64,000 nucleotides of DNA from Acutalibacteraceae bacterium. Its GTDB lineage: Bacteria > Bacillota > Clostridia > Oscillospirales > Acutalibacteraceae. Positions 30,060-59,798 of the stretch are shown in pieces. The notes under the pieces are model-generated. The model worked only from the letters and a program-made list of their open reading frames with translations. It was not told the origin of the DNA and made no database searches. The first letter of the stretch is position 1; every line of letters begins with the position of its first letter. The DNA lies in contig JAZRFT010000017.1 in assembly GCA_045643805.1 (NCBI GenBank), forward strand, positions 88,123-152,122. Direction: 5' to 3'. The position numbers were made by a program, and so were the translations under genes.

Positions 30060-30662
30060 TTAAGAATTAACCTTGCTCATTGCTCCGTCAATGTCACCTT
30101 CAACCATAAATTCAAGCGCTGTTGCAGTTTTTTCTGCGGCAGCCTTTATTTTTTCTGCTTCGTCCTTTGAAAAGCGTGAAAGCACCCAGTCAGCAAGATC
30201 GTATTCCGGGTTAGGCTTTGCACCGATACCAACTTTTATACGGGGGATAGCGTCACTTTTCATATGATAAATTATGTTCTTCATACCGTTCTGACCGCCG
30301 TCTGAGCCCTTGCGACGGATTCTTACCTTGCCGGGCTCAAGGCTGATATCATCGTAAATGACAATAATATTTTCGGGCTTGATTTTGTAAAACTCTGCCG
30401 CATCTCGTACAGCTTCACCGCTTAAATTCATAAATGTCTGCGGTTTAAGGAAAAGGCAACGGTGCCCCTTGATTCTTGCTTCACCCATAAGTGACTTGAA
30501 TTTAAGGCGGTCAATTTTAAATCCGTTTTTTTCGGCAAAAAGGTCAATACAGATAAAGCCTGCATTGTGACGTGTTATTTCGTATTGCTTGCCGGGGTTT
30601 CCCAGGCCGACGATAAGGTACTCATAGGTACCGCTGTTTTCAAATTTCTTTTTAAAAACCAA
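30060..30662 (-). CDS. pth: Peptidyl-tRNA hydrolase
   Basis: Start moved to the TTG 8 nt after AAGGAG (LVFKKKF...). LIVGLGNPGKQYEITRHNAGF is the Pth signature. Confidence 0.9.
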   Translation of the reverse strand: MVFKKKFENSGTYEYLIVGLGNPGKQYEITRHNAGFICIDLFAEKNGFKIDRLKFKSLMGEARIKGHRCLFLKPQTFMNLSGEAVRDAAEFYKIKPENIIVIYDDISLEPGKVRIRRKGSDGGQNGMKNIIYHMKSDAIPRIKVGIGAKPNPEYDLADWVLSRFSKDEAEKIKAAAEKTATALEFMVEGDIDGAMSKVNS

Positions 30663-30913
30663 TGTAAAAACTCCTTGTGTGATTTTCTGATTATCAATTA
30701 TATACAAATCCTCTGAAAAGTGCAATAGTTAAGGTTGTTTTCAGTCTGACATTATATAGTATAGCAAAAAAATATATTTCTTTACCTCCGGCGGCACTTA
30801 TATTGCTAATATAGAAATAAATTTGAAAATCATTATGCTATAATTTAAGTTAACTTAAATTGAGTTATTATGCTTATTTTCAGATAAATACTGTTAAATA
30901 CGGAGGAATAAAA

Positions 30914-46900: not shown

Positions 46901-48640
46901 ATGACCAAAAAAGGCTTACTTAAAAAACACTTTATCCCTTATTTCAAAAAGCACAAGGCAGTTCTTGCACTTGACCTTTTCTGTGCCCTTTTGACAACGG
47001 GGTGCGAAATTGTGCTGCCTATGATTATAAGGGAAATAACCTCCGTTGCAACAACGGATATTTCAAAGCTCACCTGGGAGCTTATTTTACGCCTTGCAGC
47101 GGTTTACGGTGTGCTTAAGCTTATTGATATGGCGGCAGGCTATTATATGATTTACATCGGTCACGGTATGGGTGTTAAAATTGAAAAGGATATGCGTGAG
47201 GATATGTTTGCTCACCTGCTTACTGCTCCCTTTTCTTATTTTGACAAAACAAAGGTCGGTCAGCTTATGTCAAGAATTACTACGGACCTTTTTGACATTG
47301 CGGAGTTTTCCCACCATTGCCCTGAGGAGTTTTTCATTGCGGGCATAAAGGTTATTGCCTCCTTCTCTATTCTTGCTTCAATCAATCTTACCCTGACTGT
47401 TGCAACCTTTATTGCAATACCTCTTATTTTCTTCGGTACAATTTATTTCAGAAGAAAAATGCGTACCGCCTTCAAGGAAAGAAGAGTCATTGCAGGTGAT
47501 GTCAATGCACAGACGGAAACGGCTCTGCTTGGTATCAGAGTTGTGAAATCTTTTGCAAATGAGGAGCTTGAAAAGGAAAAGTTCAACAAGGAAAGTACAG
47601 CGCTGAGTGTTGTTCAGCGTGATTCCTATAAATATATGGCAAGGCTCAACGGTGTGACAAGGCTTTTTGACGGCGTGATGTACGTTATTATGATTATCCT
47701 TGGCGGTAGTTTTCTTATAAAGGGCAAAATCACCGCTGCTGATATGACCGCTTACCTGCTTTATATAGGTATGCTGATTGCGGCAATAAAGAGAATTGTT
47801 GAGTTTACCGAGCAGTTTGAAAAGGGTATGACGGGTATTGAACGCTTTGCGGAAATACTTGAAACTCCGTCAGAGCCCGGCTATGGTAACGGTGAGACAG
47901 TTGAAGCGGTAAAAGGTGAGCTTGAGTTCAGAGATGTTTCCTTCAGCTATGCAAAGGAAAAGGGTGATGTGCTTGTTAACATCAGCCTTAAAGTAAATGA
48001 AGGTGAGAATGTTGCCGTGGTCGGCCCGTCTGGCAGCGGTAAAACAACGCTTTGCTCACTCGTTTCAAGGTTTTATGAGCCGCAGCAGGGCGGAATTTTT
48101 CTTGACGGTAAGGATATAAGAGAGCTTTCACTTTCATCATTGCGTGAGGCGGTTGGTGTAGTACAGCAGGATGTATATCTTTTCTCGGGAAGTGTTATTG
48201 AAAACATACTTTACGGCAAGAAAAACGGCACAAGGGAAGAGGCTGTTGAGGCGGCAAAAAGAGCAGGTGCTCACGAGTTTATTATGAGCCTTCCCGAAGG
48301 ATACGATACTTATGTCGGTGAAAGAGGTGTAATGCTTTCAGGCGGACAGAAGCAGAGAATAAGCATTGCGAGAGTGTTTGTGAAAAATCCGCCGATACTT
48401 ATTCTTGACGAGGCAACCTCGGCTCTTGACAATGAAAGTGAGCTTTACATCAAAAAATCCCTTGCAGAGCTTTCAAAGGGCAGGACAACCTTTACTATTG
48501 CACACAGACTTTCCACGGTGCGCAATGCTGACAGGATAATTGTGCTTACGGAAAAGGGCATTGAGCAGCAGGGTACACATGAGGAGCTTGTGAAGACAGA
48601 GGGTGTTTACAAAAGGCTTTATGAGAACTCAGAAATGTAA
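46901..48640 (+). CDS. ABC exporter, fused permease/ATPase (MsbA/multidrug type)
   Basis: The N-terminal domain has 6 TM segments. Walker A GPSGSGKTT, signature LSGGQKQR and Walker B ILILDEATSALD are present. Confidence 0.9.
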   Translation: MTKKGLLKKHFIPYFKKHKAVLALDLFCALLTTGCEIVLPMIIREITSVATTDISKLTWELILRLAAVYGVLKLIDMAAGYYMIYIGHGMGVKIEKDMREDMFAHLLTAPFSYFDKTKVGQLMSRITTDLFDIAEFSHHCPEEFFIAGIKVIASFSILASINLTLTVATFIAIPLIFFGTIYFRRKMRTAFKERRVIAGDVNAQTETALLGIRVVKSFANEELEKEKFNKESTALSVVQRDSYKYMARLNGVTRLFDGVMYVIMIILGGSFLIKGKITAADMTAYLLYIGMLIAAIKRIVEFTEQFEKGMTGIERFAEILETPSEPGYGNGETVEAVKGELEFRDVSFSYAKEKGDVLVNISLKVNEGENVAVVGPSGSGKTTLCSLVSRFYEPQQGGIFLDGKDIRELSLSSLREAVGVVQQDVYLFSGSVIENILYGKKNGTREEAVEAAKRAGAHEFIMSLPEGYDTYVGERGVMLSGGQKQRISIARVFVKNPPILILDEATSALDNESELYIKKSLAELSKGRTTFTIAHRLSTVRNADRIIVLTEKGIEQQGTHEELVKTEGVYKRLYENSEM

Positions 48641-48643
48641 AAT

Positions 48644-48828
48644 GGTAAAGTTCTTTGGGTTACCTTTCTTACAAGAAAGGTAACGCCTCGCGGCGAGCGA
48701 TTAAACAATACAACAAAGACAAAGGTCACGGAAGAAAAATCCGTGACCTTTAATTTTAAGCGTAATTTGTTTTATGACCTCGCCGGTCGGGCATTCTTTC
48801 TTGTAAGAAAGAATCAAAGAACTTTACC
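48644..48828. repeat. REP/BIME-like inverted doublet (type B / type B) around a terminator
   Basis: The termini form a perfect 14-bp IR: GGTAAAGTTCTTTG (48644..48657) and CAAAGAACTTTACC (48815..48828). Arm hairpins are GTTACCTTTCTT/AAGAAAGGTAAC and ATTCTTTCTT/AAGAAAGAAT. Confidence 0.85.
48721..48751. terminator. Bidirectional terminator (GTCACGGAA type)
   Basis: AAAGGTCACGG-(9 nt)-CCGTGACCTTT. Confidence 0.75.
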
Positions 48829-48839
48829 CTTTCTTGCTT

Positions 48840-49664
48840 TTACTTAAACGCCACATAAACATAAACAATACCATCCTCGTTAAGTCTCGTTTCATTTTCC
48901 ACAGTCTGCTTGTCAAGCACATAAAAGCCCGTGCTTGTAATATGCACATTCTTCGAATTCTTACCGCCAAAGGAAAAACCGCAGTAGTTCCTTAAAAACA
49001 GTATGTCACTGTCAAAAACAACGGGCGGATATCCCTGACGGAAAATGAAAAGCACCTTGGGTCTGAAACCGAGATTTATGGTCTTTTCAATATCGTAGCC
49101 GTGACCTGTGTAGGTTCCTGTTACAAAAGGCTCGTTGTATTTCGCATGCTCGGTGGCGGTTACGTGAATGTCCTTGTCGTTGACATGGGTCTTGCAGAAA
49201 AAGTTATGCGGAACGGTTATTGACTCGTTCTGTGAGTCGGGTGCGGGGCAGGTCTCCCTTTCGTAAAAGATTTTACATACAATACGGAAGGCCTTGACCT
49301 CATCATCGTATTCCGTTTCACCGATGGTGTAGCCGGAAATTTCCGTGATGTATTTTTCGTTGAGGAAGGTCAGCACCTCCTCAAGCAGAATGTGAGTGTC
49401 CGAGGCAAGACTTCCAAGCGGTGAGAAGCAGGTCATTCGTATTGTAACCTCGTTTTTCTGGCAGAATTCCTTGTTTTCGTTTTCAAAGTAGCTTATGGTG
49501 TTCTGCTCGGGGACAAGGGAAAGGTAGATTTTTTTAAGAGGAATAGGCAGGTCCTTGGTGTCAAAGCCTCTTATGGCGTCGCAGTTTTCAGGCTGAAGAA
49601 TGTTGTTGATGTCATCTATCATTCCTTCAATTATCTGTGATGTAAAAAGCATATAAATTTCCAT
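48840..49664 (-). CDS. Hypothetical protein, last gene of the phage-like block (274 aa)
   Basis: It follows a 147-nt gap after the connector genes, and I recognise no family. The start is ambiguous: ATG at 49664 or at 49652. Confidence 0.4.
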   Translation of the reverse strand: MEIYMLFTSQIIEGMIDDINNILQPENCDAIRGFDTKDLPIPLKKIYLSLVPEQNTISYFENENKEFCQKNEVTIRMTCFSPLGSLASDTHILLEEVLTFLNEKYITEISGYTIGETEYDDEVKAFRIVCKIFYERETCPAPDSQNESITVPHNFFCKTHVNDKDIHVTATEHAKYNEPFVTGTYTGHGYDIEKTINLGFRPKVLFIFRQGYPPVVFDSDILFLRNYCGFSFGGKNSKNVHITSTGFYVLDKQTVENETRLNEDGIVYVYVAFK

Positions 49665-49811
49665 AGCCCTTTCTGGCTACAAATTTGTATGAAAACGGAG
49701 ACATCAGCCTTGTTGTAGCCTGACAAGGCGTGATGGAAATTCAGTCCATCTCGAAATTTGTTAACGACAAATTTTGAGGGACTTATAATCGGAATAGCGT
49801 GATTATTCACG

Positions 49812-50195
49812 CTATTCCTCCTTGCTTACAATTGACCAGGTATAATAGGGGTTTTTGCCGAGGTAAACCTTTTCGGTGTGGTCAATGCTTAAGTGTTTTT
49901 CGCCGAAAAAAAGTGAAACGGATGTGCCGTCAACAACGGAGAGATCAATATCGGCAGGGGAAATGAGCAGGTACTTTTTAAGACTGTCATATCCGAGCTC
50001 TGTTGCAACACCGCGAAGGTAGATTTTGTTTTTGTATCGCAGCGGCTGAAGAAAGGCGTTGAAGCTTGCTACCGTTTCACCGTCCTTTTTAATTGTAAGG
50101 CATACACCTGATTTTTTAAAAAGAGCCTTCGGGGCTTTATCAGTAACCACAGCAATAGAACCCCCCGTCAATGAGTATTGAAGCGGCTTCTGCAA
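49812..50195 (-). CDS. Hypothetical phage head-tail joining candidate (127 aa or shorter)
   Basis: The call is positional, downstream of the connector gene. It overlaps the upstream ORF by 56 nt if the ATG is used. An internal GTG at 50150 would reduce the overlap to 11 nt. Confidence 0.4.
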   Translation of the reverse strand: MQKPLQYSLTGGSIAVVTDKAPKALFKKSGVCLTIKKDGETVASFNAFLQPLRYKNKIYLRGVATELGYDSLKKYLLISPADIDLSVVDGTSVSLFFGEKHLSIDHTEKVYLGKNPYYTWSIVSKEE

Positions 50196-50502
50196 TGGCG
50201 GTATCTCTCAACAGCGTTTCTCTCTCAAGTGCTTTTGAAGGGTTATTTGTTATTGAAATGTCGCCTACGCGGTAGCTTTCATACTTTTCCGGCTCACACA
50301 GGGTACGGACAAAAAAGTGGTAGTGTGCTACCGCGGCAGCTGTCCTTGTCACAAGTGGGTCTTCCGCCTTGGCGTCGGACTTGAGGCGGGAATTAACCCA
50401 CTCAAGTCCGGCATCACAGCAGGGGATAAGCTCCTCGTCGGGATAATCGGCGGTGTCATAATTACTGCGAAGGACGGTTAAAACATCATTTGCTGTAATC
50501 AT
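50140..50502 (-). CDS. Phage head-tail connector (gp6-like) candidate
   Basis: It is a 120-aa protein directly after the capsid gene. Its helical N-terminal pattern resembles gp6-like DNA-packaging/connector proteins. Confidence 0.5.
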   Translation of the reverse strand: MITANDVLTVLRSNYDTADYPDEELIPCCDAGLEWVNSRLKSDAKAEDPLVTRTAAAVAHYHFFVRTLCEPEKYESYRVGDISITNNPSKALERETLLRDTAIAEAASILIDGGFYCCGY

Positions 50503-50516
50503 CAGGGAGCCTCCCT

Positions 50517-51521
50517 TTATGCACAGGTCATCTTAACGCAGGAATTGTCGTAAATCTTTGAGAAACCTGCAATTGTAGTGATAGCTGCTCTTTCAAGCTG
50601 ACGGTCGATAAGCTTGTCGAATTCTGTTGTTACGGGCATAGCTTCAACCTTTTCAAGGGCACAGCTCTTATCAAAGCCGATGATTGACTGCTCGGGTACA
50701 TTTTCACTCTTGAAGAGCTCGGCGCCGAGAGGTGTAATCATCTTACCAGTTGCGTGGAAGTCAAGTCCCTTGTAGCTGTCTCTGAATTCGGGAAGTGCGA
50801 GAAGCTTGCTCATAATATCGGGAGAAGCGATGAGAGTTGTGAGACTGTGGGGTGAAAGTGAATTCCAGATGTTGATAAGGTCAGCATAGGTGATATCTGC
50901 GCCTGAGGCGGCTACACTTGCTGCGCTGTTGCTGTTACCGTCACCGTTGATAAGCACGTCAATAGCCTGTGCAAGCTGGGCACGGGCAATGCCTGCACCA
51001 ATCTGCTTGAGGGCAACGGTGAAAAGGTCAAGACGCTGGAAGCGGATTGCTTCATAGGAAGCACTGAGAAGACGGCCGCATTTATGAAGTGAAACAAGCT
51101 TTGTTTTTGTAACAATTTTTGTTTCGGGAATAAAGGCGCCTTCAGCAATGAGTGAGGGTGCAGAAGCCTCTTCACCGCCTTCAGTTGTTACTGAACGGTA
51201 GTCAAGGCCGTCGATTTTAGTAGTAGTTGCAACGATTGAATCAAGGATGCTTGAGTTTTCAATTCCCTGTGCAACGGAACGTGAAACATATTCGGGGAAA
51301 AGAGTAGCAGCGTCTGTGGTTCTGAAAAACTTTTCAATGGGGTCACTGTTTTTGCCGCTTACCTTGATGTCAAAGCGCTTGAGCTGACGCTGGAAGGCAT
51401 CAAGGCCTTCAAGCTCTGTGCCGATATAGTTTTCACTGGGGTCGATGCTTTCAAGGGCATCAGAAAAGCTTTTGCCGGTTGTGTAAAGACCCTTGTCGAG
51501 TCTGATGTTATCAAAATTCAT
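50517..51521 (-). CDS. Phage major capsid protein
   Basis: The RBS AAGGAGGA is strong. This 334-aa protein lies between the decoration-like and connector genes. Composition and position are typical of an HK97-fold MCP without a delta domain. Confidence 0.7.
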   Translation of the reverse strand: MNFDNIRLDKGLYTTGKSFSDALESIDPSENYIGTELEGLDAFQRQLKRFDIKVSGKNSDPIEKFFRTTDAATLFPEYVSRSVAQGIENSSILDSIVATTTKIDGLDYRSVTTEGGEEASAPSLIAEGAFIPETKIVTKTKLVSLHKCGRLLSASYEAIRFQRLDLFTVALKQIGAGIARAQLAQAIDVLINGDGNSNSAASVAASGADITYADLINIWNSLSPHSLTTLIASPDIMSKLLALPEFRDSYKGLDFHATGKMITPLGAELFKSENVPEQSIIGFDKSCALEKVEAMPVTTEFDKLIDRQLERAAITTIAGFSKIYDNSCVKMTCA

Positions 51522-51567
51522 AGTTGAAAATCCTCCTTAAGTAAGTTGTTTTAATCGGTACACTTTA

Positions 51568-51912
51568 TTAAAGTATGAATTCAAAGGTTTTTGCAGTCAA
51601 GTCAACACCTACAACTGTGTAGGGTGTGCCGTTTTCTTCGTCAACCTCAAGGTTACCCATGGAGCCGGTAACAAGCTTGCAGATGCCCACAGAGGGAAGA
51701 GTATCCTTGAAGGATGCAACTGCGTAGCCCTTCATAATAACGGAAGCTACTCCGTCACGGTATGAAGCAACAATGCCTGTGAAGGGGTCACCTCTGTCGG
51801 GGTAATATACCTCGCCGGAGCTCTGGAGAGCAACTGCTCTGTTTGTGAATAATGCTGATGCAGCGCGGAATGTAGCTTCGTTTGTTGCAAAGCCGTTTAA
51901 AAGTGCGTTCAT
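51568..51912 (-). CDS. Small Gly/Val-rich protein, DUF2190-like head decoration candidate
   Basis: The RBS is AAGGAGGA. This 114-aa protein lies between the protease/scaffold and capsid genes. Confidence 0.45.
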   Translation of the reverse strand: MNALLNGFATNEATFRAASALFTNRAVALQSSGEVYYPDRGDPFTGIVASYRDGVASVIMKGYAVASFKDTLPSVGICKLVTGSMGNLEVDEENGTPYTVVGVDLTAKTFEFIL

Positions 51913-51927
51913 ATTGTATAGTCCTCC

Positions 51928-52875
51928 TTAAATTTTAAATGAGTTATTGTTTGATTCGTTTTTCTTGGGTGTTACAGCCTTAAGCTGAAGGGTGACGGGA
52001 ATGATTTCACTTGCCTGGTCGCGAAGGCTTTCCATAAGAGTCTTAAGTTCTGTTGAATTCATACTCTTACAGCCTGCACAAAAGGCGTCGATATTCACCT
52101 TGTGCATAGAAATCAAAGCATATTTTCGGATTTCCGAGCAAAGATGCTCTCTGTAAAGCTCTCCGTCGTGTGCCTTGAGCTCAAGCTCGTTTATGTAGCT
52201 TTTTGAATAAAGCTCCATATTTTCTTTGTTGTTTATTTCAGCAGGACGGCTGACAGCCTTTTTTTCTCCCTTTGCCTTCTCTTTTGAAAAAGCCTTTGTA
52301 ACTCCTGCATTTTTCTGTGCGGGTACAGCTACGAATGACCATTCGTAAGCATCGGTAGCATTGTTTAAGATGCCGTGGCATTGCTTTTTGCCGTAGTATT
52401 TGCCCTTGATATGGTTGCATTCGTGAGTTTTCATATTCTTTCCGCAGATTGAGCAGGTCATACTGCCCATTGAACATCCTACGCTTACCTCTTTTTTTAT
52501 GCCGCCCTCAATCTGCTCAATCATATCCTTGTTTTCATCTGTAACAAGCATATAGGCTGTAGCCTTAAGCGCAACATAGCCTTCACCTGTGGATGTCTTT
52601 TTGCTCTTGTCCTCCTGAAGCCAGGTTTTGAAAATTCTCGCCTTCTGGTTAACAGAGCTCATATTGTGGTCCGATATACCGGTTTTACCGATGAAAAGTT
52701 CGGCAAGTTTTTTAAGTGCTTCAACGTCAAAGCGTTCAAAATCACGGTCAACCTCGTTGTCGCAAAGGGTAAGATTGAAGCAGTAAACATCCTCTGCTTT
52801 GAGGGGATTTCTTGCATAGGTGTTGATGAGGGCAAGATCCTCTGCAGCAGGCGTGTTGTTAATTGCTGTTGTCAT
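51928..52875 (-). CDS. Prohead serine protease (S78/HK97-like) fused to a scaffold-like C-terminal region
   Basis: Start moved to MTTAINN after AGGAGGTG. Candidate catalytic His (GISDHN) and Ser (VSVGCS) are present, plus a conserved EWSFVAVPAQ block. A Cys4 insert is CSICG...HECNH, and the C-terminal 110 aa are charged and helical. Confidence 0.6.
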   Translation of the reverse strand: MTTAINNTPAAEDLALINTYARNPLKAEDVYCFNLTLCDNEVDRDFERFDVEALKKLAELFIGKTGISDHNMSSVNQKARIFKTWLQEDKSKKTSTGEGYVALKATAYMLVTDENKDMIEQIEGGIKKEVSVGCSMGSMTCSICGKNMKTHECNHIKGKYYGKKQCHGILNNATDAYEWSFVAVPAQKNAGVTKAFSKEKAKGEKKAVSRPAEINNKENMELYSKSYINELELKAHDGELYREHLCSEIRKYALISMHKVNIDAFCAGCKSMNSTELKTLMESLRDQASEIIPVTLQLKAVTPKKNESNNNSFKI

Positions 52876-54031
52876 CAGTTTTTTCACCTCCTGTTTCGGT
52901 AATGAGTTTTTGCGTTTGTGCATCATAGTATCGGCTTCTTGAAAGCTCGGTGATATCCTGAAGAGTTATTGCTTCCCAGTTGATTTCGAAGTCACAGTCA
53001 AAGCCGTTGAGCCTTAAGAAAAGGCGGCAGATCTGTGAGATGACGGGGTTGAGCTGTCGACGGTAAAATTCAATTTCACTTGTAAGGATATCCGCCTGCT
53101 GATAGCTCATTCGCTCGGTGGTTGACCAGCTTAAGCCAAGCAGAAAGGGCGGAATGCCCAGCTTTGCTACAATCTGCTCAAGCATTTCTCTTACGGGAAC
53201 ATCACTGTCAAGAATCTGATTGTCTGCGCCGATTGCCTTGATGTTGACGTCACCTACGGCAACAAAGTCCTTTGCGGCACCGCTGCCCGAGGACATCGCC
53301 TTACTCCATTCGTTGGCAACAAGCATTGCCCTCTCTTTGGCATATGCCTTGTCGATGACGTCATTCTGAGGCTTGTAGGTAACGGCAAAACGTACATTGC
53401 CGTCCCTTTCCCAGTTGGTACCGATGGTATTGTAAATTTTAAGCAGAATGTCACTTACAAAGGGCAGACCCTTAAGGATTGATGTTCCGTAAATGCTTCC
53501 CGGCTCAGGGTTAAGCACGGAGAGAAGCACGAGTGCAGGATATTTTACGGGCACAAAGGTGCCGTTTCCCTTGTCAGCACTCACAATAATGTCAAGAGCG
53601 CTGCTGCCTTCCGACAATGAAACAGCCTTAAGGTCAGCATTGTAAAGGTGGGTAACGGTGCTTCCGTCGGTTACGATTTCACCTATCGATGTGCCGTAGG
53701 TGAGAAGCTGTTCAAGGAAGGTGGACACAAAAGCGTCAATACCCTGTCTTGTGCCGCTTACGTTGACATTTTTAAGGAAATCTTTGAGAAGGTCTTCCGC
53801 GGCTCGGTTTTCACAGTTAATTTCAAAGGTGCCGATAAGTCTGATAAGCTTATAAATTGCGGCATCGATTATGGGAATTGCTTCTCTCAAGGATTTGTAA
53901 AGCGCCATATCGGCAGAAGATAGGGGGTTATAATTCTGCAGAGTCAGAAAGGGATGCTTTGCTCCCGATGTCTGCGGTACTGCGATAACCGCACTTTCGG
54001 GTGTTTCTTTTTTTCTTTTCCCGATTGCCAA
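52859..54031 (-). CDS. Phage portal protein
   Basis: The TTG start lies 8 nt after AAAGGAG; the GTG at 54040 overlaps the SD. This ~390-aa protein lies directly after terL. Confidence 0.7.
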   Translation of the reverse strand: MAIGKRKKETPESAVIAVPQTSGAKHPFLTLQNYNPLSSADMALYKSLREAIPIIDAAIYKLIRLIGTFEINCENRAAEDLLKDFLKNVNVSGTRQGIDAFVSTFLEQLLTYGTSIGEIVTDGSTVTHLYNADLKAVSLSEGSSALDIIVSADKGNGTFVPVKYPALVLLSVLNPEPGSIYGTSILKGLPFVSDILLKIYNTIGTNWERDGNVRFAVTYKPQNDVIDKAYAKERAMLVANEWSKAMSSGSGAAKDFVAVGDVNIKAIGADNQILDSDVPVREMLEQIVAKLGIPPFLLGLSWSTTERMSYQQADILTSEIEFYRRQLNPVISQICRLFLRLNGFDCDFEINWEAITLQDITELSRSRYYDAQTQKLITETGGEKTDDNSN

Positions 54032-54088
54032 GTTTTTCACTCCTTTCCTTCAGGGTGAAAATCCCTGATTTTACTTGTAACAAAGGGG

Positions 54089-55348
54089 TTATCTGTCGGA
54101 GGCAAAAACAAAAAATCCGTCACTCGCATCGTTAAGGACATTGAGCACAAAGTATCGGATATCGTCCATTGCGTGGTCATGCTCTTTTTTAGGAGTATCC
54201 TTGTGTGCTCCTTCCTCCCAACGGTAAAGGGAAAATTCCTTTAATGTGTTCTTGCAGGCGGGAGAAATTCTGATTTTGCCGTCACGGAAGGCACCTTGTA
54301 CCTTGCGGATGCCGTCGGTGACATCATTTTTTGCCGGTATAACGGAAAATTTTCCGTGCCGACAGATACATTCGATGAAGGAGGCGGCTGACGGGTCAAC
54401 AATAACAGCGGCAATGCTTTTGCCTTCTGTCAGCTTTGTCAGCTCGCTGTAATACTCCTCATCGGTTTTGTGGGTGCCCTCTTCCCTTGAATTGAAATAG
54501 TACTCGTCAATGCGGTACCACACTCCGTTGTAAAGTCCCCACAGACCCATAGAGGTGGGGTTGACCGTGCCGTAATCACAGGAAACATAATATTTTTCAA
54601 ATTCCGTTACGGGCGGTGAAAGAGTGTATTTGCCCTTTGCTGCGTCGGGATAAACAAGTCCGTCAACGGCAACCCACTTGCCAAGTACAAACCTTTCATA
54701 AAAGGCTCCGCTGTAAAGACTTTCGTAGCGCCTTATCATTTTTGCGGAAAGCGAAGGATTGTCTGACATCAGGAAGTGGATATAAAGGCAGTTTTTTTCT
54801 TCGTGCTTTTTAATCCATTCCGTGTAAAACCAATGCATAGGATTTTCAGGGTTGCAGTTGAACCAGAACTTTGATCCTGCAACAGAGCAACGGGCAAGAG
54901 CCTGCTCAACAAAGGAACGGGGCATGAGGGCAACTTCATCAAGGAGAATTCCGCCAAGGGTCATACCCTGAATAAGGGAAGCAGAGCTTTCATCTCTGCC
55001 GCCGAAAAGGTAAAAGCGGTTGGTTTTTCCGCCGTGGGAGACCTCAATCATATTCTGGCTGTACCTTTCCTTGCATTCAAAGCCAAGCTCCTTAAGTCGG
55101 GGGATAAGGTCGGTTATAATGTTGCGCCTTAAGGAGGTTATGGTTTTTCCGCAAATCGCAAAGGAGGTATCGTCAAAGCTGTAAAAGGTCCATGCAACAA
55201 AGGATAATGACATACAGGTCGTTTTGCCGCTTCGCACAGCTCCGTCACATATAAGCCCATCATAGCTGCAAAAAGGTGAGCTTTTATGCCACCAGGAGAA
55301 AACGGCAAGCTGTTTTTTTGAAAAGCTGCTGAAGCCCTGCTTACTCAA
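54089..55348 (-). CDS. terL: Terminase large subunit (PBSX-type)
   Basis: Walker A is GAVRSGKT and Walker B-like is GILLDEV. A C-terminal nuclease half is present. The likely TTG start lies 5 nt after AGAGGA and overlaps the terS stop by 8 nt. Confidence 0.88.
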   Translation of the reverse strand: MSKQGFSSFSKKQLAVFSWWHKSSPFCSYDGLICDGAVRSGKTTCMSLSFVAWTFYSFDDTSFAICGKTITSLRRNIITDLIPRLKELGFECKERYSQNMIEVSHGGKTNRFYLFGGRDESSASLIQGMTLGGILLDEVALMPRSFVEQALARCSVAGSKFWFNCNPENPMHWFYTEWIKKHEEKNCLYIHFLMSDNPSLSAKMIRRYESLYSGAFYERFVLGKWVAVDGLVYPDAAKGKYTLSPPVTEFEKYYVSCDYGTVNPTSMGLWGLYNGVWYRIDEYYFNSREEGTHKTDEEYYSELTKLTEGKSIAAVIVDPSAASFIECICRHGKFSVIPAKNDVTDGIRKVQGAFRDGKIRISPACKNTLKEFSLYRWEEGAHKDTPKKEHDHAMDDIRYFVLNVLNDASDGFFVFASDR

Positions 55349-55856
55349 TGCTGTCCTCTTTAAGTGCTGAGGCACAGGATGAAATTGCATTGTAAAGTGA
55401 GTTTTCTGTCATATAATCCTTTTCGTCACAAAGCTGCTGTAATTTTTCAAGAGCTTTAAGACGGTCAAAAAACTTGATTTCAATATCTCCGCCCTTTTTT
55501 CTCTTGATTTCGGAAATATTAAAAAAATCCATTTCCTCAAGCTTTTCCTTTTCGGGGTCTTCGGAATATAAAAGTCCGATTGCATCACTGACACAGCCGA
55601 AGGCAAGTCGTACGTATCCTTGAGCGATATCCTTTCTGTCGGCCCTTCGCTGCTTGTCAAGCTCATCAATGTAGTCTTTTATCTCCTTTCTTTTCAGAAG
55701 TCGCAGTGCGGCCTTTTCCGGAAACATATAGCCGGATTTTGCCGCCGCCTCTCTGCCGTTGCAGCTTACACTGCAGTAGGTGCAGAAAAGCTTTTCTTTA
55801 CTTGTGAGTTCTTTTTTTATGGTTAATTCTCCTTTCCGAGAGGAAATACCCCTCAC
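55341..55856 (-). CDS. terS: Terminase small subunit
   Basis: The N-terminal LTSKEKLFCTYY..NGREAAAKSGY HTH-like motif is typical of Terminase_2-type small subunits. The start codon is uncertain (GTG at 55856, or an unusual codon after AAAGGAGA). Confidence 0.65.
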   Translation of the reverse strand: MRGISSRKGELTIKKELTSKEKLFCTYCSVSCNGREAAAKSGYMFPEKAALRLLKRKEIKDYIDELDKQRRADRKDIAQGYVRLAFGCVSDAIGLLYSEDPEKEKLEEMDFFNISEIKRKKGGDIEIKFFDRLKALEKLQQLCDEKDYMTENSLYNAISSCASALKEDSIE

Positions 55857-56010
55857 TTATAGTCCGGAAAACGCAATTTGTGGCATGATTTTGTCCGTTT
55901 TTTGCCTTGAAATGCGAAAATTTTTCAAAAATATTTTTTCCGGGACAAAAAACGGACTGAAAACAGGCAATTTACTGTTTTGTAAAAATGAATAATTTTT
56001 GAATTAACTA

Positions 56011-56039
56011 TTGACATTGTTTAAATGCTGATATATAAT
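56011..56039 (+). promoter_or_regulatory. Consensus sigma-A promoter of the 27-aa peptide gene
   Basis: TTGACA, a 17-nt spacer, then TATAAT, with both hexamers perfect. Confidence 0.7.
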
Positions 56040-56095
56040 TAAAGTAACTTGAAGGAGTGAATCCTTAGGTTTAATATTAAAAGGAGGAAATAATA

Positions 56096-56179
56096 ATGGA
56101 AATGATTAAGGAATATTGGCCTCAGATCGTAGCTTTCTTTGATAAGCTCTACGCTATTCTTAAGGGCATTCTTGCTTAA
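56096..56179 (+). CDS. Unannotated 27-aa amphipathic peptide (MEMIKEYWPQIVAFFDKLYAILKGILA)
   Basis: The RBS AAAGGAGGA lies 7 nt before the ATG. A perfect promoter lies upstream and a terminator at 56238. It is below the ORF-track cut-off. Confidence 0.55.
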   Translation: MEMIKEYWPQIVAFFDKLYAILKGILA

Positions 56180-56237
56180 TAATTTTTAACTGCGCATTAA
56201 AAATTTAAAGCTATTTTAAAATTTGAAATTTTAAAAT

Positions 56238-56270
56238 AAAAAGCCACCCTGATGGGTGGCTTCTTATTTT
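56238..56270. terminator. Bidirectional terminator (peptide gene / mfd)
   Basis: AAAAAGCCACCC-tgat-GGGTGGCTTCTTATTTTT. A second hairpin GCTGACGG/CCGTCAGC lies at 56283..56310. Confidence 0.75.
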
Positions 56271-56321: not shown

Positions 56322-59300
56322 TTAACAGCAGGCTGAAAGGCAGGTGATAAGCTCCTTTATGGCTTCAATAGATGAGCGCCCCATAAGCTTGACTGAAATG
56401 TAGGGTGCAGTACTTCTTGCGCCGCTTATCAGTGCACGGCCTCTCATGTTCTGCGCAACGGCAGAGGCATATTCGGGCCTGAAATCGTTGAAAAATGCAA
56501 GCACCATACCATTTTGCTGTTTAATTTCGAAAATTCCGAGCTTTGCCGCGTTGGCTCGAAGCAGAGCAACATCAATAAGCCCCTGAACACTGGGCGGAAT
56601 ATCACCGAAACGGTCAATGAATTCGTCGGTGACGTCCATAGCATCCTCACCGTTTTCAATTTCTGCAATACGCTTGTACATATTTATGCGGTTTTTCACC
56701 GAGTCAATGTAGGTTTCGGGGATGTGAGCGTCAACATTGATATCAACAACGCATTCTTTTTTCTCCACGTGCTCCTGACCTGTTTTTTCTTCACCGATGG
56801 CCTCGGAAAGAATTTTAAGGTACATATCGTAGCCGACAGCCTCCATATGTCCGTGCTGTTGAGCACCGAGGATACTGCCTGCACCGCGGATTTCAAGATC
56901 ACGCATAGCAATTTTAAAGCCCGAGCCGAATTCCGTAAATTCACGGATTGCTTCAAGGCGGCGCCTTGCGGTTTCGTTTAATTCCTTGTGCTTGTTGTAG
57001 GTGAAATAAGCAAAGGCTCGGCGGGGACTTCTGCCCACTCGGCCTCTTATCTGATGAAGCTGTGCAAGACCGAGGCGGTCAGCATCCTCAATGATGAGGG
57101 TGTTTGCGTTGGGAACATCAACACCTGTTTCAATTATAGTGGTGCAGACAAGGATGTCAATTTCATTTTCAAGAAGCTGACGCCACACCTCACTTAATTC
57201 TTCCTCGCTCATTTTACCGTGGCCTATGCCGATACGGGCATCGGGCAGGTATTCCTTAATCTGTGCGGCACGTCCTTCAATACCGTCAATGCGGTTGTAA
57301 AGGTAGTAAACCTGACCACCTCTGCGAAGCTCCCTTTCCATTGCCTCGGCAAGGATATCCATTTCCTGGGCAACAACGTAGGTCTGTACCGGATGTCTGC
57401 CCGTGGGAGCAATTTCCAGAAGTGACATATCACGGATGCCCGTCATTGCCATATTGAGTGTACGGGGAATAGGTGTAGCCGAAAGGGTCAGCACGTCAAC
57501 ACCGGGAAACTTTTCCTTGAGCTTTTCCTTCTGAAGCACACCGAAGCGTTGCTCCTCATCGACAATGAGAAGTCCCAGGTCTTTGAATTCAACGCTTTTG
57601 GCAATGATTGCGTGAGTGCCGACGATGATATCAATACTGCCTCTTTTTAGGGCTTTTTTTATTTTAGTTCGGTCACCCTGACTGCGGAAGCGTGAAATCA
57701 TATCCACTTCAACGGGGAAGCCGTCAAAACGCTTTTTTATAGTCTGAAAATGCTGGAAGGCAAGAATTGTTGTAGGTACAAGAATTGCACATTGCTTTCC
57801 GTCGGCCACACATTTGAAGGCGGCACGCAGGGCAACCTCTGTTTTGCCGAAGCCTACATCACCGCAAAGGAGTCTGTCCATAGGTGAGGGGCGCTCCATA
57901 TCGTGCTTTATATCGTGGATTGCAACAAGCTGGTCGTCGGTTTCCTCAAATTCAAAACGGCGCTCAAAGTCACTTTGCATATCCATATCAGGTGAAAAGC
58001 TGAAGCCCTTGCTGTTCATACGCTCGGCATAAAGCTCGGTAAGCTTTTTGGCCATATCCTTTACAGCGGCACGGACACGGGACTTTGTCTTTTTCCACTC
58101 ATCAGAGCCTAGCTTATTGAGCTTCACCGTTTTGTCCATATCGTGAGGTGAGGCGTATTTTGAAATCAGGTCAAGCTGTGTGACAGGAAGGTAAAGCACA
58201 TCACTTCCGCGATAGTTGATTTTGATAAAATCCTTGATAACGCCTGACATATTCATTGTCTTAATGCCGTCAAAAACACCTATGCCGTGCATAGCGTGAA
58301 CTATGTAGTCACCCTTTGATATTTCATCAAGTGAGGTAAGACCTTTCCCCGTTTTATACTTTGCTTTCTGCTTTTTCTTTTCTGTTGCAACAACCTTTCC
58401 GTAGGTAAAAAGGGAGAATTTAAGGAAATCGTATTCCATACCCGAGGAAACACAGCCTGCAATAACGCTGACAAAGCCCTTCGGGAATTCACCGGGCACA
58501 ACGGGGAAATATCTTGCCTTTATGCCCTCTGTTTCAAGGTCAAAGGCAAGCTCCTTTGCACTTTTTTCCGTGCCTGCCATAACAACACAGGTGTAGCCTG
58601 AATGGATGCAGGGTTTAAGGTCATCCATAAGATATGAGAGTGTGCCGTCCCAACGGGAGGTCTGACGGGCATTGATGCTCACAAGCTCCTTTACGGGAGT
58701 ATCAAAGGAGCCTCGGGCAAGGGAGTCAAGATAAATTGCACCTTGCTCCTCATATTTTTTCAGCACTTCTGTCCAGGTGAGTGCATAGGTGTCAATGCCC
58801 TTTGTAAGAATACCTTCCTCAAAAAGAGTGCGGATATCCTCGTTGAGAAGAGCCGAGGAGGTGTTGAACTTCTGCTTGACGGAAGCGCTTTCACATACAA
58901 ACAGAAGATCATCCTTCATATAATCAAAAACCGTTGCAAGTCCGTCGTAGGCAAGGGCAAGATATTTGTCGGGAGCACCTACGCCGATAAAATGCTCGAG
59001 GGCGTCAATATCTTCACGGATTTTTTCCTTTGCCTTGACGCTTCCTTTACCCTTGACGGTTTCAATAAAGGAAAGAAGCTTTTCCTTCATTGCCTCGTGT
59101 GAGTCGAAAAGCACCTCTGTTGCAGGGGTAAGCTTTACGGCGTCCAGAACATCGGTACGGCGCTGACTTTCAATGTCAAAATGAGCCATTGAGTCAATTT
59201 CATCACCCCAGAATTCAATACGGCAGGGTTCTGTGCTGTCGGGAGGGTAGAAGTCAAGTATGCCGCCGCGAAGGGAAAACTGACCTACACCTTCAACAAG

Positions 59301-59798
59301 GTCGGTACGGCTGTAGCCTGCGGCAAGTAAAAGGTTTGTGATTTTGTGAGTGGTAATTTCATCGCCGACAGAAAAGGACGGACTGCGTTTGCGAAGCTCA
59401 TCGCAGGGGAGAGTAAGCTGGGTAGCGGCCTCAATACTGCAAAGGACAAAGCGGCACTTGTTGTCGAGAATCTGACAAAGTGCGGAAAGACGCTTCTGCT
59501 CAAATTCGTGGGACTTGTTGTCGTTTGAGCGGAAGGAGAAATCTCGTGCAGGGTAAAGCACGGCACCGCCGCAAAAGCTGTTAAGGTCATCACAGAGCTT
59601 GCTTGCAGTACCCTCGTCGTGGCAGATGATGAGGGCTTTTTTGTTGTCTTTCTGCTCCTCGAGGAGGGCGGAGATATAGTGAGCCTTATGCACCTGGGAA
59701 AGACAGATTACGCCCATAGGGAGTCGGCGGTTATTTATTGAGGCAGATATTTTTTCAAACTCTGAGCTGCCCTTTAATATTTTTGAAAAGCCCGACAT
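56322..59798 (-). CDS. mfd: Transcription-repair coupling factor
   Basis: The 1158-aa product has superfamily-2 helicase motifs (GDVGFGKTEVA, DEEQRFG, SATPIPRT), a CarD-like domain and a TRCF C-terminus. Confidence 0.97.
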   Translation of the reverse strand: MSGFSKILKGSSEFEKISASINNRRLPMGVICLSQVHKAHYISALLEEQKDNKKALIICHDEGTASKLCDDLNSFCGGAVLYPARDFSFRSNDNKSHEFEQKRLSALCQILDNKCRFVLCSIEAATQLTLPCDELRKRSPSFSVGDEITTHKITNLLLAAGYSRTDLVEGVGQFSLRGGILDFYPPDSTEPCRIEFWGDEIDSMAHFDIESQRRTDVLDAVKLTPATEVLFDSHEAMKEKLLSFIETVKGKGSVKAKEKIREDIDALEHFIGVGAPDKYLALAYDGLATVFDYMKDDLLFVCESASVKQKFNTSSALLNEDIRTLFEEGILTKGIDTYALTWTEVLKKYEEQGAIYLDSLARGSFDTPVKELVSINARQTSRWDGTLSYLMDDLKPCIHSGYTCVVMAGTEKSAKELAFDLETEGIKARYFPVVPGEFPKGFVSVIAGCVSSGMEYDFLKFSLFTYGKVVATEKKKQKAKYKTGKGLTSLDEISKGDYIVHAMHGIGVFDGIKTMNMSGVIKDFIKINYRGSDVLYLPVTQLDLISKYASPHDMDKTVKLNKLGSDEWKKTKSRVRAAVKDMAKKLTELYAERMNSKGFSFSPDMDMQSDFERRFEFEETDDQLVAIHDIKHDMERPSPMDRLLCGDVGFGKTEVALRAAFKCVADGKQCAILVPTTILAFQHFQTIKKRFDGFPVEVDMISRFRSQGDRTKIKKALKRGSIDIIVGTHAIIAKSVEFKDLGLLIVDEEQRFGVLQKEKLKEKFPGVDVLTLSATPIPRTLNMAMTGIRDMSLLEIAPTGRHPVQTYVVAQEMDILAEAMERELRRGGQVYYLYNRIDGIEGRAAQIKEYLPDARIGIGHGKMSEEELSEVWRQLLENEIDILVCTTIIETGVDVPNANTLIIEDADRLGLAQLHQIRGRVGRSPRRAFAYFTYNKHKELNETARRRLEAIREFTEFGSGFKIAMRDLEIRGAGSILGAQQHGHMEAVGYDMYLKILSEAIGEEKTGQEHVEKKECVVDINVDAHIPETYIDSVKNRINMYKRIAEIENGEDAMDVTDEFIDRFGDIPPSVQGLIDVALLRANAAKLGIFEIKQQNGMVLAFFNDFRPEYASAVAQNMRGRALISGARSTAPYISVKLMGRSSIEAIKELITCLSACC

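Follow-up and report, generated by a model that had tools for sequence, protein, structure and literature searches.

We analysed a 64,000-nucleotide stretch of the genome of an Acutalibacteraceae bacterium (assembly GCA_045643805.1, contig JAZRFT010000017.1, positions 88,123 to 152,122 of the forward strand; hereafter the window), which carries at positions 48840–55856 a block of nine phage-type packaging, head and neck genes lying between housekeeping genes. A measurable share of the virus-like particles (VLPs) in the gut consists of capsids filled with host DNA; such packaging is concentrated in Oscillospirales, where only FpGTA, the gene transfer agent (GTA) of Faecalibacterium prausnitzii, has been characterised as a source. 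FpGTA is specified by a 10.5-kb head operon and by an unlinked 5.5-kb operon for baseplate, fibre, holin and endolysin, 125 kb from the first; its particles measure 40 nm, have no visible tail and package 8.4–8.9 kb of host DNA, and its small terminase (TerS) has no obvious DNA-binding domain (Borodovich et al, Nat Commun 2026, PMC12946183). GTA-like packaging in faecal VLPs was reported in the same work across Ruminococcaceae, Oscillospiraceae and Christensenellaceae (PMC12946183). A preprint on the mouse “transductome” found Acutalibacteraceae DNA to represent about 10% of one VLP condition and described GTA-like or capsid-forming-satellite-like clusters in Butyricicoccaceae and Oscillospiraceae (bioRxiv 10.64898/2026.07.08.737213). 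We found no description of the Acutalibacteraceae block itself in the literature.

The block resembles FpGTA in being a host-fixed chromosomal operon of gut Oscillospirales that encodes TerS, the large terminase (TerL), portal, scaffold/protease, capsid and small structural proteins, with no integration or replication genes. FpGTA has a capsid of the N4-gp56 family with a Prp protease and a podovirus nozzle, whereas the block has a capsid of the HK97 type (PF25209), a TerL of the PBSX family and a neck protein with a terminator fold. Also, operon I of FpGTA spans 10.5 kb including tail parts, whereas the block spans 7 kb and has a fibre-tip-like domain fused to a neck protein. Set apart in this way by the FpGTA annotations and its own profile matches, the block would be a domestication independent of FpGTA and not its orthologue.

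Phage-inducible chromosomal islands that form capsids (cf-PICIs) are mobile satellites of 10–18 kb with int, alpA, rep, HNH and att; they occur as identical copies across species, and the tail-less capsids that they release combine with foreign tails (Alqurainy et al, 2023; He et al, 2025 preprint). Like them, the block encodes its own capsid, protease (a weak assignment in the block), portal, adaptor, connector, TerS and TerL and lacks genes for tails and lysis; unlike them, it has no int, alpA, rep, HNH or att, spans only ~7 kb and co-diverges with its host. PBSX is controlled by its host, packages host DNA and comes with a complete contractile tail, genes for lysis and regulators of its own, xre and xpf; it is not known to transfer the packaged DNA. 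It shares with the block the PBSX-family TerL (TIGR01547) and a weak XkdF-type protease signal. Certain relatives of the block also share with PBSX the order XkdP-Q-R-S-T-U-V after the neck, and their module includes a baseplate-wedge match (phrog_6, 1e-62). The element in the window differs from PBSX in having no sheath, tube, tape measure or baseplate, and the likeness is one of family models. Viriforms of the RcGTA type correspond to the block in their phage-derived structural cluster, vertical inheritance, purifying selection and lack of replication and integration genes, but RcGTA has head and tail in one ~15-kb cluster, and the sequences are unrelated and come from different phyla. The TerS of RcGTA has no obvious DNA-binding domain.

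Because of the synteny, selection and co-divergence described below, we propose that the block is a host-domesticated, GTA-like head–neck “viriform” operon of PBSX-like ancestry in gut spore-forming Acutalibacteraceae and Oscillospiraceae, with a probability of about 0.62. A preliminary description of the locus had offered three explanations, a domesticated GTA-like head locus, a capsid-forming satellite and a prophage remnant, and the same three lines of evidence support the first of these.

Conservation, inheritance and selection

A scan of GTDB, taking one genome per species, identified relatives of the block in at least 549 species genomes. The best 80 of these were almost all gut metagenome-assembled genomes, human and ruminant, of Acutalibacteraceae, Oscillospiraceae or “Clostridia”, and essentially all nine genes were present in each (tblastn). 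On contigs whose capsid proteins are 90% and 80% identical to that of the window, all nine genes recur at the corresponding site, with the order permease, mfd, block, ABC exporter, aspartate kinase and homoserine dehydrogenase. At 64–67% capsid identity the block still adjoins mfd, with mfd inverted and different outer flanks, and this adjacency persists down to about 58–64%. Outside the mfd-adjacent clade the block occupies other fixed host sites, next to MgtE in 12 loci and to ABC, MscS-like or GH31 genes in others, as judged by inspection of the neighbours. A ~462-aa gene divergent from terS in the former 12 loci was considered as a serine integrase and rejected, as by inspection it encodes the MgtE-type magnesium transporter. 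Neither the window nor any of ~90 related chromosomal loci contained an integrase or recombinase within 10 kb, nor did we find alpA, a replication gene, HNH or att repeats in them.

The orientation of mfd is opposite in related loci L007, L008 and L012–L024 relative to the window and L001–L006, and the outer flanks differ between the two groups. The pattern resembles either a single-gene inversion or more than one joining of the block to mfd.

Every open reading frame (ORF) of the block had been described as intact, and this extends well beyond the window: about 700 gene copies from ~80 species contained zero internal stops or frameshifts, with stops localised only to over-extended N-termini of the queries or to natural C-termini. 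The dN/dS ratios, computed between the window and L001 at a dS of ~1 that was similar for block and host genes, ranged from 0.04 to 0.21 for the nine block genes, compared with 0.044 for mfd, 0.067 for the ABC exporter gene and 0.042 for the aspartate kinase gene. The individual values were 0.09 for terS, 0.056 for terL, 0.043 for the portal, 0.10 for the 332-aa gene, 0.21 for the 114-aa gene (the maximum of the block), 0.066 for the 120-aa adaptor and 0.09 for the 127-aa gene. Protein distances for TerL, portal and capsid followed those for Mfd across 17 genomes (Mantel r = 0.90, with 0 of 5000 permutations as high). Together, the comparison of synteny, gene integrity and dN/dS across relatives indicates that the block is inherited vertically and is kept by strong purifying selection. 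Relaxed selection, one of the signs that the preliminary description had named as evidence against a domesticated or satellite locus, was not observed; dN/dS remained at 0.04–0.21 and the orthologues were free of inactivating changes.

The capsid protein had 7994 homologues, and an exact-sequence look-up returned no record of the window protein. Among 50,697 GenBank phage records, no isolated phage had a capsid protein with more than 25% identity to it. The only closer capsids were those of five unverified faecal virome scaffolds labelled “Bacteriophage sp.”. One of these (MT835508.1, L010) is a chromosome fragment encoding SecY, RpoA, Rnf, NrdD and ABC transporters in addition to the head block; the other four (MT835952.1, MT836604.1, MT835769.1 and MT838993.1) match the block itself, and many “viral” contigs in IMG/VR resemble loci of this kind. 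We considered the faecal virome records as evidence of packaging and rejected them as such: they are chromosome fragments, and deposition favours contigs with capsid genes. The block provides a sequence signature for metagenome loci now mislabelled as “Bacteriophage sp.” or as proviruses.

Gene content and the neck fusion

The window contains nine intact, co-directional ORFs on the minus strand, at exactly the coordinates first described, in the order terS, terL, portal, protease/scaffold-like gene, small structural gene, HK97-type capsid gene, head–tail adaptor gene, a gene of unknown product and the 274-aa gene (Table 1). Pfam, PHROG and NCBIfam profiles confirmed the first-sight assignments of terS, terL, portal and major capsid protein; TerL scored 197 bits with TIGR01547 against a cut-off of 105, and its Walker A motif, GAVRSGKT, is visible in the translation. 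No HNH endonuclease was matched among the nine products in Pfam, PHROG or NCBIfam, and neither the block products in these collections nor the 10 flanking genes in NCBIfam matched alpA or pri-rep replication modules.

Table 1. Coordinates of the block genes and associated regions, with the evidence for each (positions in the window).
Feature	Position	Strand	Evidence
terS, small terminase	55341..55856	-	PF03592 Terminase_2, 7e-16, profile positions 1-128 of 141; phrog_2606/51
terL, large terminase, PBSX family	54089..55390	-	TIGR01547, 5.6e-58; PF03237, 2e-14; PF04466; PF17289
Portal	52859..54040	-	PF04860, 3e-12; phrog_30703, 9e-132
Probable prohead protease with scaffold-like C-terminal part, 332 aa	51928..52926	-	phrog_16951, 8e-98 (function unknown)
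Putative small head protein, 114 aa (decoration or accessory)	51568..51912	-	phrog_4588 “virion structural protein”, 1.8e-10
Major capsid protein, HK97 fold	50517..51521	-	PF25209, 5.5e-15; phrog_3922, 1e-88; TIGR01554, 27.7 bits (borderline)
Head–tail adaptor, 120 aa	50140..50502	-	12 of 41 orthologues match phrog_541 head-tail adaptor, best E 7e-5
Conserved neck protein, ~112-127 aa	49812..50195	-	found in 84 loci; invariant motif PLRYKNK..Y
Two-domain neck protein, 274-aa ORF	48840..49664	-	likely start ATG 49652, giving 270 aa
Operon control region	55857..55960	-	-10-like TATAAG at 55861-55856 within conserved motif TATAAGTGAGGGG; no recognisable -35
Divergent small-peptide gene	56011..56262	+	ORF 56096-56179, MEMIKEYWPQIVAFFDKLYAILKGILA, 27 aa
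Distal intergenic region	48640..48832	none	shared with convergent ABC exporter gene; nested inverted repeats around terminator; distal end of operon

The 332-aa protein had been read as an S78-like protease with a scaffold-like tail. The protease matches are weak (NF045541, prohead protease/major capsid protein fusion, E 0.0096; PF14550, Peptidase_S78_2/XkdF, E 0.015), and a profile search against the PDB gave no credible match. The orthologue alignment shows invariant residues H70, S131, C134, C141, C144, C153, H155 and C166, a His/Ser pattern together with a Cys cluster. Based on these matches and this conservation, the protein is probably composed of an XkdF/S78-like N-terminal half with a Cys-rich insertion, followed by a helical scaffold-like C-terminal part. 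The DUF2190-like identity proposed for the 114-aa protein was not reproduced, the PHROG family in Table 1 being its sole match, with none in Pfam or the PDB; a gene of ~113 aa precedes the capsid gene in most relatives.

Several ORF starts appear to be over-extended, which makes the short overlaps (8–17 nt) noted earlier unreliable. Stop codons of relatives fall within the first 3–16 codons of the extensions of terL and the 332-aa ORF; for terL they lie at query residues 3–14, so that its first 10–15 or so codons are probably untranslated, and the likely start of the 332-aa ORF is the M at 52875. The terS ORF comprises 171 aa from a GTG at 55856, which lies upstream of the ribosome-binding site GAAAGGAG; the probable real start is the ATA at 55820-55818, 8 nt after this site, giving ~159 aa. 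A putative AUH start was identified as ATA in the window, L007, L008, L013 and L016, as ATT in L001 and L012, and as ATC in L005, L011 and L023. In these loci the AUH codon is positioned 7–9 nt past a strong ribosome-binding site, exactly where other relatives have ATG or TTG. Because of this non-canonical start, gene callers cut terS to 63 aa in L001–L004. In two independent assemblies of one lineage, terL and portal were called as a single 812-aa ORF (L008, 6608-9046; L009, 554-2992), which may be a genuine fusion or read-through.

In the neck region, the 120-aa protein of the window itself had no match in Pfam, PHROG or PDB profiles, and its orthologues gave scattered sub-threshold matches in a Pfam scan. 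The earlier assignment to a gp6-like connector is nevertheless supported through the orthologues that match phrog_541. For the 127-aa family, the profile search assigned no Pfam, PHROG or PDB family, with only scattered sub-threshold Pfam matches among orthologues; its position suggests a head-closure (stopper) protein.

Structure prediction of the last product, the 274-aa protein, gave a terminator-fold N-terminal domain and a C-terminal beta-sandwich. The AlphaFold2 model (predicted local distance difference test, pLDDT, 78) comprises an alpha/beta domain spanning residues 1–140, a disordered linker (residues 145–172) and the beta-sandwich (residues 175–274). Foldseek searches of the PDB with the N-terminal domain returned lambda gpU, the SaPI1 neck, the E217 gateway, T5 p142 and pyocin/diffocin collar proteins (E 1e-5 to 1e-3), and in BFVD it matched the “neck terminator gp12-like” family. 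According to this model, residues 1–140 adopt the tail-terminator/gpU-like fold. The C-terminal domain modelled alone had no significant Foldseek match, the best being the ToxT cupin (E 0.027).

Comparison by tblastn traced the two parts to separate genes. Residues 5–135 align with a separate 135-aa gene, the last of the block in L007 and L008, and residues 156–274 align with the C-terminus of the last gene of a baseplate module in L086, L088 and L090. These alignments indicate that the 274-aa protein is a fusion of a neck terminator and the tip domain of the module’s last, fibre-like gene. Both halves are constrained, with dN/dS of 0.039 for the N-terminal and 0.049 for the C-terminal domain. 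With adaptor, stopper-like protein and terminator fold in the neck, the gene set is, by these assignments, complete for DNA packaging, capsid and neck.

The baseplate module follows the neck genes in L084, L086, L088 and L090 and encodes proteins of ~172, 316, 119, 136, 355, 189 and 158 aa. It includes the strong baseplate-wedge match to phrog_6 (1e-62) as well as a match to a hub, which is weak; sheath and tape measure are missing from it. We take its gene order to mirror that of PBSX from XkdP to XkdV. Most IMG/VR relatives, with capsids 52–60% identical, carry the module as well, directly after the neck in some contigs and separated by ~2.6 kb in others, enough for sheath and tube. Among the GTDB loci, 53 have the long fused form of the last gene (269–328 aa), 17 a short terminator (127–194 aa) and four the baseplate module. 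Ruminococcus sp. LCP21S3_E8 is a cultured carrier of the baseplate type. In some loci the co-directional genes 3' of the block are host genes (DHDPS, TrmB, TPK and HAD).

The presence of the module in relatives implies that the ancestral particle had a baseplate, and the fibre-tip-like domain fused to the terminator suggests that tail and baseplate may have been lost in the window lineage. In the simplest history consistent with these sequences, a PBSX-like ancestor lost its tail stepwise, and in the window lineage a deletion fused the terminator gene with the part of the module’s last gene that encodes the tip domain. The architectures form a reduction series, from expanded tail module to baseplate only, to fused tip domain and to terminator only, in which the tail is stripped from a phage-derived particle while selection retains the head.

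Proposed function and rival explanations

Under the GTA-like interpretation, the operon would be switched on by a dedicated activator or sigma factor, no sigma-70 promoter being visible, and the cell would assemble small capsids. The AUA, AUU or AUC start of terS in much of the mfd clade would keep TerS scarce. The PBSX-type terminase would then load the capsids by a headful mechanism, and the DNA, as with PBSX and GTAs, would probably be that of the host; the portal would be sealed by adaptor, stopper and a hexameric terminator ring showing six copies of the C-terminal beta-sandwich. Particles would exit through cell lysis or mother-cell lysis, with these functions encoded elsewhere. The displayed C-terminal domain may bind recipients directly, and the recipient’s own machinery for uptake may bring in the DNA; or else a baseplate from an unlinked locus may complete the particle. 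A more far-reaching possibility for Acutalibacteraceae and their neighbours (at least 549 species) is a tail-less “head-and-neck” GTA, in which the terminator ring with six former fibre-tip domains would replace the tail and bind recipients or feed the uptake machinery without tail, baseplate or borrowed tail. We consider this specific form less likely than not.

Several observations weigh against the GTA-like interpretation. Its functional part derives from comparative sequence analysis. To our knowledge, classical GTAs all carry a tail, and none is linked to the block. Likewise, the window contains no lysis gene. In TerS the Terminase_2 region is retained in full, N-terminal part included, whereas the TerS proteins of FpGTA and RcGTA have no obvious DNA-binding domain, so that packaging could be site-specific and not random. 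The C-terminal domain of the fusion has no recognisable fold relative, and a receptor-binding role follows only from its homology with the fibre-like gene. The distinct positions of the block between subclades could also stem from rare relocation events. Finally, a 7-kb operon might fit into its own capsid, blurring the GTA criterion of a particle unable to carry its own genome. Of the features by which GTAs and other viriforms are recognised (PMC9662315), the block and the related loci show a structural cluster without integration, replication or lysogeny modules, and evolution in concert with the host (synteny, dN/dS, Mantel r and absence of pseudogenes); for a tailed particle, also among these features, neither the block nor the 64-kb window has tail or baseplate genes, which again speaks against the proposal.

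Conservation, selection, co-divergence and the missing mobility genes exclude a decaying remnant and membership of the cf-PICIs. An inert prophage remnant that is still intact by chance would account for a head half alone among housekeeping genes, as the preliminary description suggested, but its probability is close to negligible: dN/dS is 0.04–0.21 at a dS of ~1, with selection equal in strength to that acting on mfd and the ABC exporter gene, no pseudogene occurs in ~80 species, block relatives are present in at least 549 species genomes, and co-divergence with mfd argues against recent independent insertions. The satellite explanation of the preliminary description survives in the packaging-gene content, which is that of the cf-PICI packaging module with no tail or lysis genes, and fails in membership, as int, alpA, rep, HNH and att are absent and the block co-diverges with mfd. 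A chromosomally fixed descendant of a capsid-forming satellite would release tail-less, DNA-filled capsids that use the tails of infecting or resident phages, spreading host DNA and perhaps interfering with phage. Such behaviour has precedents in the tail-less cf-PICI capsids that join foreign tails and in the “capsid-forming-satellite-like” cluster reported in Oscillospiraceae and Butyricicoccaceae. However, the block spans 7 kb in place of 10–18 kb and is vertically inherited, and the adaptor and neck genes of close relatives are conserved under purifying selection and not swapped. Long-tailed phages are known to assemble the terminator on the tail; to a finished tail, a head with its own terminator-fold ring and an extra outward domain would thus offer a poor dock. 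We regard such a sessile satellite as very doubtful.

The absence of lysis genes from the window means that some function must be encoded elsewhere, and FpGTA provides exactly a two-locus layout, with operons 125 kb apart. The window block could by analogy be an “operon I” for head and neck, with an unlinked operon of the same genome adding baseplate or short tail, holin and endolysin to form short-tailed particles; the baseplate module directly after the neck in L084, L086, L088, L090 and many IMG/VR contigs is in line with this. An intact baseplate with a fibre of its own would leave the constrained fusion of tip and terminator without an easy explanation, however, and no baseplate homologue lies within the 64-kb window, so that we consider a split GTA rather unlikely. 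A further alternative, which we judge quite unlikely, is exaptation beyond gene transfer, as DNA containers in sporulation or stress, as decoys or devices of abortive infection directed at related phages, or as particles that kill or lyse in the manner of PBSX. PBSX, with which the block shares the TerL family and possibly the protease family and module order, packages host DNA without known transfer; the hosts are spore-formers, with YtvI encoded nearby and a GerA-like gene as neighbour of L084; and terminase and portal are always retained, so that DNA packaging would be needed. The contractile tail through which PBSX kills is missing here, the block has no linked genes of defence type, and the retained, surface-exposed C-terminal domain suggests an interaction outside the particle. 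If the GTA-like interpretation is correct, the block would represent a second, independent domestication, from a PBSX/HK97-type rather than an N4-type ancestor, fixed across a large and abundant gut family. It is a testable candidate source of the Acutalibacteraceae DNA in VLP fractions.

Flanking and control regions

The block is bounded by mfd (TIGR00580, 1030 bits) on one side and by an MsbA-like ABC exporter gene on the other, followed by genes for aspartate kinase, homoserine dehydrogenase and YtvI (NCBIfam, 10 flanking genes). Its GC content equals that of the flanks, consistent with the chromosome-like composition noted earlier. Translations from the first 41 kb of the window, read by eye, are housekeeping-like (H+-pyrophosphatase, Pth, beta-galactosidase, DltB-like and others). 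The original observation that the window has no tail, lysis, integrase or replication gene held in the NCBIfam search of the 10 flanking genes and in the by-eye reading of positions 1–41 kb; tblastn with the baseplate proteins of relatives found no homologue in the 64 kb, which also contain no contractile tail (sheath, tube, tape measure, baseplate) and no lysis cassette. No att-like direct repeats flank the block.

Where the regulation and replication modules of a cf-PICI would be sought, upstream of the block, there is just the 27-aa peptide gene. We identified no consensus sigma-70 promoter on the operon strand upstream of terS. In six relatives (L011, L012, L015, L017, L023 and L030), an exact palindrome TTGTTGCA-N7-TGCAACAA lies directly upstream of terS in every case; after it come a GCCG-T5-CGGC hairpin and the motif TAT(A/T)AGTG(A/G)GAGG. 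Based on this arrangement, the palindrome and hairpin region is likely the operator/promoter of the operon. The palindrome is absent from the window at up to three mismatches, its left half being degenerate, and marks no other operon there. The lack of a sigma-70 promoter, together with the palindrome of the relatives, suggests a dedicated regulator.

The gap between the block and mfd, described as about 460 bp, measures 465 bp, but it is not empty: it contains the peptide gene, which has a perfect (12/12) sigma-70 promoter at 56011-56039 and, at 56241-56262, a terminator. The peptide family is amphipathic, of 27–50 aa, with the motif W..IVA[FL]FDK[LFI]Y.I, and is often encoded by two tandem paralogues divergent from terS. 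Nearly every mfd-adjacent locus examined (among L001–L024, L026, L030 and L073) has homologous peptides encoded between mfd and terS, some of them called as 29–37-aa genes; none was found in L015, L017 and L020. The gene stays with the block even where mfd is inverted, and it does not occur at loci not adjoining mfd. The gene may encode a regulator or a peptide that acts in lysis or at the membrane, or it may be an unrelated host gene.

At the distal end, a strong terminator with a 13-bp stem (48720-48752) separates the ABC exporter gene from the block. It is surrounded by perfect palindromes, CTTTCTTACAAGAAAG and CTTTCTTGTAAGAAAG, both of which lie within a longer inverted repeat. These correspond to the two elements previously taken for a doublet of repetitive extragenic palindromic (REP) type; both are present, but each occurs only here in the window, which gives no sign of a dispersed REP family.

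Between the 127-aa and 274-aa genes, the window has a specific insertion of ~145 nt (49655-49815, minus strand) where close relatives have a 2-nt gap. We found no second copy of it in the window or in related loci. Within it lie a hairpin with a 12-bp stem (GGAATAGCGTGA/TCACGCTATTCC) and an out-of-frame ORF of 59 aa that includes a DivIVA-like motif. Finally, pth and mfd are neighbours in many Firmicutes. In the window, pth, identified by eye (30060-30725, minus strand), lies 26 kb away from mfd (56322-59798, minus strand), and this separation suggests a rearrangement around mfd in the window lineage.

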